A DNA stretch of 64,000 nucleotides. Source: Eledone cirrhosa (taxonomy: Eukaryota). Under the pieces are notes generated by a model. The model was given only the letters and a program-made list of their open reading frames with translations. It did not search any database and was not told the origin of the DNA. Of the stretch, positions 16,090 to 46,000 are shown piece after piece. The stretch is from positions 28,396,001 through 28,460,000 of the forward strand of contig OZ024747.1 in NCBI GenBank assembly GCA_964016885.1, given 5' to 3'. The position numbers were made by a program, and so were the translations under genes. The first letter of the stretch is position 1, and each line of letters starts with the position of its first letter.

Positions 16090-19000
16090 CTACAAAAAAA
16101 TAAGAAGATATAGAGAGTCAGTACTGATACATACACACACACACATACACATATATATGAAATATATTAAACTTAAGCCAACATCTCAATTTAGGGGTAA
16201 CTATAAGTAAAACAGACTTATTTTAATCGGTCTAGTTTATATCCCCCCCAAATTGAGATGTCTACACATTAGAGACATTTAACTTTATAAATTTGTATAT
16301 ATATATATTAATTTGAGTATGTGTTGGTTAATCACTGACACTTCAGTATGCAGGGTAGAGCACACAACCAAGTGCGCAGGTGGGTTTGTTTACTCCGGAG
16401 TATATATATAAACATGAAGTACAAGTCAACAGGTTAAAATTAATTTTGTTCATTCATAGTTGCTGTCTATGAATAAACAAAGTTAATTTTAACCTGTTGA
16501 CTTATACTTCATATATATATATATATAAAACATTAAAAAAATAATGAATAAAACAATGAAACAGTTCCTTATATTAAACAAAAAAAGTTCATTATTTAAC
16601 GATCGTTTCTAGGACATATATGTGTTAGAATTGGCATGCATATTCAAAAGATCTATGTACAAAATTATACAAACTATCAAAGAGAATATACATACCAACA
16701 CATATATATGCTGTCTTCAGAAATAATGAAGTATATTTATTGATAATAACAACAATTCAAAATTACAGGTCTGTTTGGGAACAGATTTTAAATAGACCAA
16801 TGAAATACATAAAAATTCATCAAGAAAATACAGTTAGGTGTGTGTATATATGTAAGTAACTTCGTTCACAGATATGCATAAAAATGTATGTTCACATGCA
16901 TACGCATGTCGAAAAAGTGTATGTAAATATAAAAATTCAGGGCTAATGTCTCTGTATGTTTATAATCCACAGACAAAATATACATACATATACATACATA
17001 TATACACACATATATACACACATATACATATATTCATACACATACATGCATATATACATAAACACACACATACCCACGAACACCCACACACATATATACA
17101 CACACACACACACACACACACATACGTATATATTATTATTATAACTATATGGATATTGAGGCGCACACATAAACACGGCCACATACACTTACATCTAGAT
17201 GCAGAATTAAAAGAAGGTAAGGGAGTAAGTAATTAAGGAGGGTGTCAGACTCAGCAGATTGTGTTCCCAAGAACTATTTGAAATAATGAAATCTAAGGAT
17301 ATCCTATTAAATAAGCGACAGGAATTAATTATATCGTGTAATCATAAACTGAGAAAAACATTTAAATATTATAAACCTAATTAATAATATATATTTTAGA
17401 AATTAATATATAAATTAATTTAAATGTAGTTAACCTATAATTTTAATTTAATTAAAATTCTACTACAGATGAAATTAAAAAATATTGTGTAATCATAAAC
17501 TGTGAAAAACTTTTAAATATTATTAACATAATTAATATATACTTTGGAAATTAATTTATAGATTAATTTTAGTTTATTTAACCTTTTATTAAAATTCCTT
17601 TACAGATGAAATATAACAAAATATCGTGTAATCAATAACAGAGAAATACTTTTTAATATTATAAACCTAATTAATGTACAATTTAGAAATTAATTTATAA
17701 ATTAATTTTAATTTAGTTAACCTATAATTTTAATTTAGTTAGCTTAAAATTAAAATTCTAATACAGATGGATTGCAGAATATCATGTAATCATAAACTGA
17801 GAAAAACTTTAAAATATATACCTAATTAATATATTCTTTACAAATAAATATATAGATTAATTTTAATTTTAGTTAACCTATAATTATATTCTACTATAGA
17901 CAAAATACAAAATTTGCTTTAATTATTATAAACCTAATTAACATATACTATAGAAATTAATATATAATTTTTAATTTAGTTAACCTATAATTAATATTCT
18001 ACTACCGATGAAATACTTGATTTGGCTTTCCCTATTACAAAATTCATTTCCTAAAATTGATACCATCATGTTAATATTTTTAATTTAGTTATGCTATAAT
18101 TAACACTCTACTACTGTTTAACTTCAAAATTCCGCTTTAAATATTATAAACCTAAGTAGTATACACCTTAGATATTAATATATTAACTATTTTTACTTTA
18201 ATTAACCTATAATTAATAGTCTACTTATATTAAAATGCATAATTTAGCCTTCTTTCTTACAAATACCATTTCCTAATGTAAACACATATTATGATTTAAA
18301 TGCAGATTAATATTCTATGTTCCTTGAAACCTATATTTACTATTTCCCACTAATAATTTTAATCCCCCTTCCCCCCTATAATTATTCGTATTTGTAAGCG
18401 TGGATGTATGTATGTGTACGTAAGTATGTATGTATGTTTGTGTGTTTGTATGTGAGTATAAAAATACATATGTGCGCATGTAAATAAGTGTGTATGAGTG
18501 TATATATATATGTATATATATATATATATATATATATATATATATATATATATATATATATATATATATATATGTATATATATGTGTATGTATGTATGTG
18601 TATGTATATGTATTTGTAGAGATGTGTGTATGTATGTGTATATATGTGCATAATTGTCTGACTGTGTGTATTTATTTATTATTTTTTTTATATATATATA
18701 TATATATGTATGTATATATATGTGTATATATATATATATATATGTGTATATATATATGTATATGTATATATATGTGTGTATGTATGTCTCTATATTTATG
18801 TATGTCTGAGTGTGTGTGAGTGTGTGGTTGTGTGTATATATACATGGGTATGTGTGTGTATGTATATATACGTATATGTATGTGTGTGTGTGTATATATA
18901 TGTGTGTATATATATATGTGTGTATATATATATGTATATATATGTATATATATATGTATATATATGTGTATATATATATATGTATGTGTATGTATGTGTG

Positions 19001-43000: not shown

Positions 43001-46000
43001 AATTTTTTGAGTGCTTTATATCAGTTATAAAAAATATTTGCTTGTTGTATCCCAACAATTTAAATAGAACTTCTACATATATATATATATATATATATTA
43101 TGAAGAGAGAAGAAACATTTAGATATAATTAGTAATAAAATGTATCATACCTAAACTGTTCCTAAATTCCTCGACTACGTAGTTTCGTGGCATAAACAAA
43201 AACAATATATGAAAGATATAGAGTCCTTGCGAGGTCTGCCGACTTATCAAGAGGATACCTCATTTTACTAGTCTCAAGAACGCGTCTACACGACGTGAGA
43301 AAGAATCCCAAAAGGCGGAGGGGGAGATAGTCACGCGATATAACGGTCGAGAAACAGAGCTAAGCCTCTTATAACCACGAAGAAAATACCACGGAGGCGG
43401 AGGGGGCATTCATATCGAGGCCGTAGAAGAGGTAGTGAAGAAGGCGAGAAGTATGAGTAATGGAAGCTTTCCAATTGTCCCCACACTTCAAAGATTGCTC
43501 GACCAGAGGGAGTTATTAATATATTTAGAAACACACAGATACATGCGGACACACACATATATACATGAATGCATCCGCACCCAACTGTGAGTTAAGGGTG
43601 CCAACTTCACCGATGTTGCTCAATGAATGACTGGGACAGACCAATTCAGTTTGAACCAGACTGAACCAGTATCAGAGTTAAAATACATTATGAAGAGAGA
43701 AGAAACATTTAGATATAATTAGTAATAAAATGTATCATACCTAAACTGTTCCTAAATTCCTCGACTACGTAGTTTCGTGGCATAAACAAAAACAATATAT
43801 GAAAGATATAGAGTCCATTACTCATACTTCTCGCCTTCTTCACTACCTCTTCTACGGCCTCGATATGAATGCCCCCTCCGCCTCCGTGGTATTTTCTTCG
43901 TGGTTATAAGAGGCTTAGCTCTGTTTCTCGACCGTTATATCGCGTGACTATCTCCCCCTCCGCCTTTTGGGATTCTTTCTCACGTCGTGTAGACGCGTTC
44001 TTGAGACTAGTAAAATGAGGTATCCTCTTGATAAGTCGGCAGACCTCGCAAGGACTCTATATCTTTCATATATTGTTTTTGTTTATGCCACGAAACTACG
44101 TAGTCGAGGAATTTAGGAACAGTTTAGGTATGATACATTTTATTACTAATTATATCTAAATGTTTCTTCTCTCTTCATAATGTATTTTAACTCTGATACT
44201 GGTTCAGTCTGGTTCAAACTGAATTGGTCTGTTCCAGTCATTCATTGAGCAACATCGGTGAAGTTGGCACCCTTAACTCACAGTTGGGTGCGGATGCATT
44301 CATGTATATATGTGTGTGTCCGCATGTATCTGTGTGTTTCTAAATATATTAATAACTCCCTCTGGTCGAGCAATCTTAGAAGTGTGGGGACAATTGGAAA
44401 GCTTCCATTACTCATACTTCTCGCCTTCTTCACTACCTCTTCTACGGCCTCGATATGAATGCCCCCTCCGCCTCCGTGGTATTTTCTTCGTGGTTATAAG
44501 AGGCTTAGCTCTGTTTCTCGACCGTTATATCGCGTGACTATCTCCCCCTCCGCCTTTTGGGATTCTTTCTCACGTCGTGTAGACGCGTTCTTGAGACTAG
44601 TAAAATGAGGTATCCTCTTGATAAGTCGGCAGACCTCGCAAGGACTCTATATCTTTCATATATTGTTTTTGTTTATGCCACGAAACTACGTAGTCGAGGA
44701 ATTTAGGAACAGTTTAGGTATGATACATTTTATTACTAATTATATCTAAATGTTTCTTCTCTCTTCATAATGTATTTTAACTCTGATACTGGTTCAGTCT
44801 GGTTCAAACTGAATTGGTCTGTCCCAGTCATTCATTGAGCAACATCGGTGAAGTTGGCACCCTTAACTCACAGTTGGGTGCGGATGCATTCATGTATATA
44901 TGTGTGTGTCCGCATGTATCTGTGTGTTTCTAAATATATATATATATATATATATATGATAGATTCTGTTGTATAGTAGTGAGGTCTGGACAATACCTGC
45001 CTAGTGATTATTCTGTCAACCTCAGAAAATTAAAAGTGAAAGGTGACCATAATGGAATTTAAAGTTTGCACATAAAAGTACATATATAAATTCCAATGGA
45101 ATTTTGTCCAGCACACTTCTGCTTCTTTAGCAGAGATCTAAAGAATGAAAAGGAAAAGCTCACCAAATCAGCAAATTCGTTCATTCCCAGCCAGTAGGTG
45201 TGGAGACCCATATCAGCCTTCAGGTTGTGTTCCTTCACAATTTTCAGATTTTTCTCCCAGATGACACGACTGAAAACAACAGCAGTTGATTAATACAAAT
45301 TTCTATGTCTTTAAAAGAACACATTAGATCATGTAGGTAAAGATACACTACACCTGAAACAAAAAGTTAAGATGGTATCATTTAGAATGCCTTTGATTAT
45401 AAATTTTTTCCAATCAACCAACTAGTAGGTATGTTGTTTATGCTCTATGAAGGAATGAAACCCGAGTTCACCTCTAGTTTGGTGGGAACTTCAAACCCTT
45501 TATGTTGTGGGTATAATAATTGTTTTGGAAGATTGATGCACATCAACAGAAGATCAATATCATTGGTAACATCACTTTAGATTACATCATTGGAATATAT
45601 ATTGTAAACTTAATTTCTAATCAAACTTACTTGAATTAATAGTTTGTTATTGCATATTCCATTGTATAAGTCAACCCCCCCCCCACCCCCCAGCTAACCA
45701 GTTATGTACTGGACCAAGAAAATCTCAATTCTAAATATATAGATTATAAATGTATATAAAATGAAGGTGTGACTTATCTACATGTGTAACTTATACATGG
45801 GTATATAGGTACTTTAATTAATTGTTACTTAAAATAATTAATTTCTTAAGTTGGAAACTTACATAGTTACTTTAATTAAAACTTAAATTAATTAAAACTA
45901 TATTACTTTGATTCAAACTTACTTAAATGAATACTTAATTACTTTTAATAAAAGTTTAATTAATGCTTAATTGTTTTAAATAAAACTTACTTCAATCAAT

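Follow-up and report, generated by a model that had tools for sequence, protein, structure and literature searches.

The introns of a cathepsin L-like gene of Eledone cirrhosa were analysed for mobile elements carrying hammerhead ribozymes. The gene lies in a 64-kb stretch of contig OZ024747.1 (positions 28,396,001 to 28,460,000, forward strand), referred to as the window, and positions below are those of the window. The closest solved-structure matches of the gene product were cathepsin L proteins and a Peptidase_C1 domain was found, which confirmed the host gene named in an earlier annotation made from the sequence alone (the original prediction). Single exons translated well, and their ends are approximate (off by a few bases). 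The two large introns of the original prediction, of 9.4 and 12.6 kb, were located at 16093-25468 (approximately 9,376 bases) and 32582-45164 (approximately 12,583 bases), and ribozyme-type elements fill approximately 80% and 68% of them, respectively. The seven groups of hammerhead sites predicted there were named families A (16588/19789), B (20607/24298), C (22495), D (23470/24685), E (23628), F (35962/38458/38711/39670) and G (43163/44011/44601). The introns very probably hold truncated ends of four coding Penelope-like elements (PLEs) of the Hydra clade (A, D, E and F) together with retrozymes (B, C and G) that would borrow a Hydra-type enzyme for insertion into (TA)n tracts.

Hammerheads were searched for with a self-written type I descriptor, with CUGANGA or UUGANAA as strict cores and 60 dinucleotide block shuffles as the null. 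The strict cores gave ten matches in 16092-45165 and none in the remaining window, compared to 0.42 ± 0.61 in the shuffles (maximum two), in accordance with the predicted confinement to the introns. Nine of these matches were named sites, and the tenth, at 41064, looks like chance. The fully relaxed core was far less specific, with 13 matches versus 2.5 ± 1.5 in the shuffles (maximum seven). Evaluation by hand and by constrained folding revealed the type I layout at all 15 named sites, 12 of which were complete and three of which were damaged copies, with a C.C mismatch at 15.2-16.2 (20607, family B), loss of stem III (23470, D) or GUAA instead of GAAA (39670, F). In 15 F-like folds from genomic loci, 94.3% of 300 cells were paired, 8 of the 20 pairs were altered on both sides and the core letters were almost invariant; none of 500 shuffles reached this covariation score, although kinship among the sequences inflates the test. 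There is next to no probability that the folds arose by chance from a relaxed core matching AT-rich sequence. An Rfam scan of the window (E ≤ 10) returned no hammerhead family and the fully relaxed core is frequent in shuffles, but the excess obtained with the published cores and the covariation speak against chance and rule it out for six families; for D, the case comes from conservation and position only.

The cores were diverse. UUGANAA (U3-A8) cores, a published Penelope variant (PMC4209133), were present in B, G and an additional family, H, intact copies of which were found at loci L158 and L189. The mismatch at 10.1-11.1, predicted to be frequent, occurred in A, B and D (three of the seven families) and was absent from the other four. 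CAGAAGA with a CUU site was the common form within family D. This U4A core may be weak or inactive; the literature search found no paper on a U4A hammerhead core, which, being kept by a protein-coding family of young age, would add an apparently undescribed form to the hammerhead variants.

Each family was searched for in its own genome (3.0 Gb), and the best 40 candidates were scored each time, out of 2,163 (A), 3,505 (B), 2,840 (C), 1,910 (D), 98 (E), 1,921 (F) and 238 (G). The ends of A lie on both sides of an 801-codon open reading frame (ORF) for reverse transcriptase (RT) and GIY-YIG at locus L061, and positions 17256-17381 of the window were 100% identical to its last 42 codons. Full ORFs were flanked by D ends at L137, L138 and L142 and by E ends at L141, L136 and L140. 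For F, the endonuclease (EN) lies inside the window and the ORF start was found behind the end repeat at L218/L219. A single ORF with RT followed by a C-terminal GIY-YIG was seen in A (L061/L064), D (L137/L138), E (L141) and the pieces of F. The DKT motif read SDKTGN (A), YDKTGN (D) and ADKTNN (E); RWR stood at the RWK place in A and E, and RWK was not detected in the D copy at L138. CxCx5C, CxxC and CxH were present in A, D, E and F, and the GIY-YIG core of A, D and E had no CxxC pair inside. Pfam did not recognise the F protein pieces in the window, and a PDB search with the A protein gave no match. By their motifs, and by likeness to the published alignment as judged by eye, A, D, E and F are assigned to the Hydra clade.

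These results changed the predicted picture of one autonomous helper with many passengers. Coding sequence had been assigned to a single family; A, however, retains 42 of its codons within the window, and ORFs elsewhere are flanked by D and E ends, so that A, D and E have ORFs of their own and do not qualify as non-autonomous passengers. Ribozyme-bearing non-autonomous passengers do exist, but A, D, E and F are separate coding elements. It is therefore highly improbable that one autonomous Penelope, F, mobilises six non-coding families. F is the only family with a long coding remnant in the window, but A, D and E flank their own RT/GIY-YIG ORFs (L061, L138 and L141), with proteins of the Hydra families only about 40-50% alike, which excludes a single helper for these three, and no F-specific likeness was found in B, C or G. 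The families were unrelated, as predicted, with no homology among the seven beyond AT-rich noise; their number was too low, as at least three more ribozyme-type elements were found (20155-20357, 21402-22019 and 39113-39375). Another very abundant young Hydra family (L251, L254) has ORFs of 741-781 codons together with a separate CUGAAGA fold with a long stem, and the genome holds approximately 51,000 candidate Hydra EN matches. The 139-bp repeats in the 3' untranslated region (UTR) of A (17331-18276) resemble decayed copies of the last codons of the ORF. Fragments at L112, L125, L182 and L189 are putatively of Neptune-like PLEs, a label given from their motifs.

Families B, C and G had a different architecture. 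Their units were 594 nt (B), 558 nt (C) and 590-591 nt (G) long, with a GC content of 0.39, 0.33 and 0.42 and a longest ATG-initiated ORF of 45, 49 and 75 amino acids, respectively, and each carries one predicted type I hammerhead. Upstream of the unit lay the unit's own 3' end, i.e., a head-to-tail arrangement, in B, C, G and the diverged subfamilies C2 (536 nt, 76% alike) and B3 (581 nt, 78%), which share the same build. The best 40 copies of each of B, C and G were 94-100% alike and located on many chromosomes, in line with recent mobility, and G formed ORF-less arrays of up to six units per arm and ten per insertion. By architecture, B, C and G are classed as non-LTR (long terminal repeat) retrozymes.

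Mapping to the ends of coding Penelope elements, which the original prediction had set against itself if every family did so, was found for A, D, E and F, four out of seven, and not for B, C and G. None of the four Hydra families of the window had B, C or G as its own terminus, no coding parent was found among the diverged relatives searched, and B, C and G were never the own terminus in 96 Hydra EN ends (23 clusters, 1.39 Mb of loci). The B, C and G matches near those ends were in opposite orientation or beyond the element's end, and were read as separate insertions. We consider it improbable that every one of the seven families represents the end of a coding PLE, with B, C and G being pLTRs whose long forms are rare and were missed by the sampling. 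The ribozyme, near-end and far-end spacing is the same as in the coding families, and the 96 ends are few among the candidate EN matches of the genome; the units' own 3' ends upstream, the long ORF-less arrays and the retention of the same ORF-less unit in subfamilies only 76-78% alike nevertheless argue against it.

The evidence connecting the two kinds of elements came from the insertion footprint. In all seven families, the 3' ends were fixed and the 5' ends ragged. Of the 161 arm ends in families A-E and G, 146 were followed by (TA)n, which bore out the predicted (TA)n boundaries. Many insertions consisted of two arms joined 5' to 5', with the arms ending at a near or a far site, 78-164 nt apart across families. 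G arms ended at unit position 372 or 536, with one of each in all 16 complete two-armed insertions; C arms ended at 478 or 560, with one near and one far end in 10 of 11 two-armed insertions, and C2 had one of each in 7 of 7 (33 of 34 for C, C2 and G). Such pairing of a near with a far end was also seen in the coding families D (10 clean pairs among 18 loci) and F (7 of 13). The offset between the two ends corresponds to the PLE tail. Because the arms follow this common rule, C and G are inferred to be copied in trans by enzymes of the Hydra type. All mapped ends finished in AT/TAT, which suggests short microhomology with the target. In the mechanism proposed, the GIY-YIG nuclease would cut both strands of a (TA)n tract, each DNA end would prime RT inside the RNA, one at the near and the other at the far start site, and the two cDNAs would join at their 5' ends. 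Each insertion would leave (TA)n on both sides, i.e., new targets, leading to nesting and intron growth. There is little likelihood that B, C and G are instead satellite-like DNA spread by unequal crossover, or were moved by a long interspersed nuclear element (LINE) or Helitron. RTE/CR1-type LINEs are abundant near these loci and the units are tandem, but the short arrays are dispersed on many chromosomes, the fixed 3' ends at (TA)n, the ragged 5' ends and the near/far rule are those of the Hydra elements, and no poly(A) or LINE tail was seen.

The template of B, C and G would, with less support, be a monomer that is cut by the ribozyme, re-ligated into a circle and copied over several rounds. 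Among the units of 12 G arrays, the median divergence was 0.19% within arrays (195 pairs) versus 1.02% between arrays (2,374 pairs), and eight array-wide haplotypes were distinguished, each fixed over the whole array including inverted arms; G-unit variants near 369-393 are alignment-end artefacts. Uniformity within arrays and difference between them favours copying from one circular unit, and the haplotypes would reflect repeated passage through a single unit followed by expansion to at most ten units, which fits the rolling-circle copying of a circular monomer already proposed (PMC4209133), although a uniform linear donor may account for it as well. The circular fold was better than in shuffles for C (z = −5.3) and G (z = −5.5). 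Four sequencing runs (kind unrecorded) were considered as evidence of circles or expression and rejected, as tandem DNA gives the same joint; one contained the same two G 3' ends before (TA)n and another a 591-nt go-back joint.

Several observations weigh against the proposed borrowing and circular copying. The tails of 78-164 nt exceed the published 30-40 bp. B had no second arm (0 of 19 loci; 0 of 12 for B3), and its circle folds no better than shuffles (z = −1.2). B, C and G share no terminal sequence with any Hydra family examined, the best B/Hydra likeness being an 18-nt match between B and E (E = 0.057). The helper of B is thus less certain than that of C and G; this match and the mostly one-armed state of coding E (two arms in 2 of 18) are a weak lead. 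A rare coding parent of B, C and G might still exist, because only the best 40 of hundreds to thousands of candidates were scored and EN candidates are so numerous. An anole PLE used uncleaved RNA in vitro, without need of the ribozyme (PMC11167929), and eight of nine Xenopus retrozymes did not cleave (bioRxiv 10.64898/2026.07.22.740005), for which reason a linear multimer could be the template. That the retrozymes are PLE-mobilised and copied from uncleaved linear multimers, with weak or dispensable ribozymes, is a real if doubtful possibility. Ribozyme mutants also work in the anole system (available sections of PMC11167929), the young family D keeps a U4A core and a weak CUU site, and cDNA runs through the intact ribozyme; the private array-wide haplotypes, however, would need repeated monomer-to-multimer steps, and subfamilies that are 76-87% alike have retained both the core and the stems.

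Table 1. Host gene and ribozyme-type elements of the two introns, with predicted hammerheads (single positions are those of cores).
Positions	Strand	Element	Predicted hammerhead	Further features
15986-46667	-	Cathepsin L-like gene		7 coding exons; structure matches, Peptidase_C1; exon ends approximate
16525-20133	both arms	Family A, two-armed, 5'-truncated insertion of autonomous Hydra PLE	CUGAAGA at 16720 (-) and 19799 (+); 104-nt stem II, palindromic stem III, GUU site	Near end of left arm (-) at 16525; right arm (+) with last 42 codons (17256-17384), 2.6-kb 3' UTR and tail to 20133
20155-20357	+	Family H, damaged copy	UUGAAAA at 20190; 4-bp stems, GUA site	
20406-20960	+	Family B, subfamily B2, ORF-less retrozyme unit	UUGAUAA at 20612; stem III mismatch	
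21402-22019	both arms	Two-armed element	GUC...GAAA...CUGAUGA in reversed order	
22230-22648	-	Family C, 5'-truncated copy of 558-nt ORF-less unit	CUGAGGA at 22619; 9-bp stem I, 64-nt stem III, GUC site near 22504	
22683-23205	+	G', copy of family G		16-nt deletion removing the core
23234-23545		Family D, insertion 1, end of autonomous Hydra PLE	CAGAAGA near 23475 (+); stem III damaged	Inverted tail 23234-23313
23566-23728	+	Family E, 3' end of autonomous Hydra PLE	CUGAUGA at 23633; palindromic stem III, AUA site	
23786-24648	+	Family B, subfamily B1, 1.45 head-to-tail units of 594-nt ORF-less retrozyme	UUGAAAA at 24302; GUC site near 24422	
24665-24871		Family D, insertion 2, two short arms	CAGAAGA at 24730 (-), fold complete; U.U at stem II base, CUU site	
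35830-38564		Family F, insertion 1, two-armed truncated Hydra PLE	36017 (-), 38465 (+)	GIY-YIG remnant 36455-36964
38579-38850	-	Family F relative, 84-87% alike	38767; compensatory stem II changes	
39113-39375	+	Degenerate A-like end	Core lost	
39638-43076		Family F, insertion 3, inverted arms	39725 (-) with GUAA; partial deletion of the ribozyme in the right arm near 42909	RT-thumb/GIY-YIG remnant 40454-41471
43099-44936		Family G, two-armed array of 590-nt ORF-less retrozyme	UUGAUAA at 43250 (-), 44028 (+) and 44618 (+); GUC site	Arm ends at unit positions 372 (left) and 536 (right); absent from paralog

The reversed motif order of the element at 21402-22019 is retained in copies 77-86% alike, and the element is a candidate scrambled hammerhead. 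The core-less G' was considered as a spreading ribozyme-free family and rejected, the deletion being private to that copy: full-length matches among the other 39 scored relatives span 234-238 bases, compared to 221 in G'. Short fold-back elements, with one arm longer, lie between (TA)n tracts at 26150-26345, 35600-35757 and 16401-16525. The family of the element at 26150 has many copies with a near-identical turn point and keeps GAAA-stem-GUC without CUGANGA.

The cathepsin gene is duplicated approximately 50 kb upstream with approximately 99% identity; this copy could be a tandem duplicate or an uncollapsed haplotype. The site of the G array is an empty (TA)11 in the paralog, for which reason intron growth by (TA)n insertions is regarded as still ongoing, and the predicted Penelope-like origin, nesting and intron inflation gained support. 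The paralog also lacks C and G', while a C2 copy and further insertions of its own occupy these tracts, and the duplicated region at approximately 28346000-28396000 (loci L129-L133) shows different insertions within the same (TA)n tracts. Six complete folds, at 16720, 22619, 24730, 36017, 38767 and 43250, are on the minus strand, i.e., that of the host pre-mRNA, where the family C ribozyme, with long stems I and III, could cleave as a monomer. Elsewhere in the window, a 2.2-kb direct duplication (96%; 4115-6273 and 53486-55686) is part of a segmental duplication, LINE ORFs (endonuclease, RT, PHD finger) occur at 885-3754 and 60931-62799, and a tRNA-like sequence lies at 63370-63440.

The genome-wide background was estimated from 40 evenly spaced 10-kb stretches (400 kb) and eight shuffles. 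The descriptor gave 32 matches (0-6 in the shuffles) and, at the stricter setting, 20 (0-1), and all seven families were matched within these stretches. This corresponds to a density of approximately 5-7 per 100 kb, or 150,000-200,000 folds genome-wide if the sample is fair, the matches being clumped. The introns, with eight strict matches in 29 kb, exceed the background approximately 5-fold but were chosen for richness, and two of the random stretches hold four matches each at the looser setting. The intron locus is rich but not special in this genome.

The Hydra clade has been described with hammerheads, (TA)n targets and an Octopus member, Hydra-1_Obim (Craig et al. 2021, PMC8557442). According to the available sections of that paper, the elements found here agree with it in the C-terminal GIY-YIG, DKT, the CxCx5C linker, CxxC and CxH around the E/N, the end-repeat hammerhead, (TA)n targets, partial tandems, an inverted 5' arm and a tail at one end. 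They differ in RWR instead of RWK (A and E), in unit lengths of approximately 3.2 (D), 4.0 (E) and 6.3 kb (A) versus units 'generally <3 kb', in tails of 78-139 nt, in the many young families present at once, in the long stem II (A) and in the U4A core (D). Relative to the PLE hammerhead variants in the sections at hand of Cervera and de la Pena (2014, PMC4209133), the present folds agree in the U3-A8 covariation, in a short, palindromic stem III of the dimer type, in an additional base 5' of stem II, in the many diverse families per genome and in the opposite-strand pairs, whereas a very long stem II (A, B and G) or stem III (B and C) sets them apart, and those sections do not mention the U4A core. 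For Poseidon of Anolis, the PLE tail was traced in vitro to RT initiating at two sites inside the RNA (Frangieh et al. 2024, PMC11167929, in part). As proposed here, RT starts downstream of the ribozyme at two sites and both strands of AT-rich DNA are cut; Poseidon belongs to another clade, and the start sites proposed here are further apart, with AT/TAT ends.

B, C and G share with metazoan non-LTR retrozymes (Cervera and de la Pena 2020, PMC7229834, sections available) the ORF-less head-to-tail units with one type I hammerhead each, GC below 45%, the co-occurrence with PLEs and the proposed use of PLE enzymes. The units of 536-594 nt are longer than those of coral, mussel and axolotl (220-390 nt) and fall within the range of 51-972 given in the accessible text of Li, Clavereau and Pollet (2026, bioRxiv 10.64898/2026.07.22.740005). 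That preprint argues for non-LTR retrozymes being non-autonomous PLE derivatives, and many of its Xenopus families resemble pLTR, whereas B, C and G have no homology to the sampled pLTR. Two-armed near/far insertions and (TA)n targeting are not described in the available sections of either retrozyme paper. A literature search found no paper on cephalopod retrozymes or two-armed retrozyme insertions, although the supplements of the preprint may list such families. Published work already covers both kinds of element as well as the U3-A8 core, the targeting of (TA)n and the tails; the host is new.

The locus catches (TA)n-driven intron growth under way, as gene copies approximately 99% alike already differ by several insertions, and six predicted sense-strand ribozymes make it a fair question whether the host transcript gets cut. 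The idea that PLEs move retrozymes has so far been argued from co-occurrence and likeness to pLTRs, to which the near/far rule on inverted arms adds footprint evidence, and the array-wide haplotypes bear on the question of the circular template. We regard as evenly balanced the wider reading that Hydra retrotransposons and, unrelated to them, circular-RNA parasites are blooming in this genome, in which the Hydra enzyme would read a circular monomer repeatedly from both sides of the (TA)n break with two fixed starts; as the passengers share no sequence with the helpers sampled, they would be recognised by structure. If this were true, the intact ORFs and 99%-identical passengers would make the movement of animal retrozymes directly testable.

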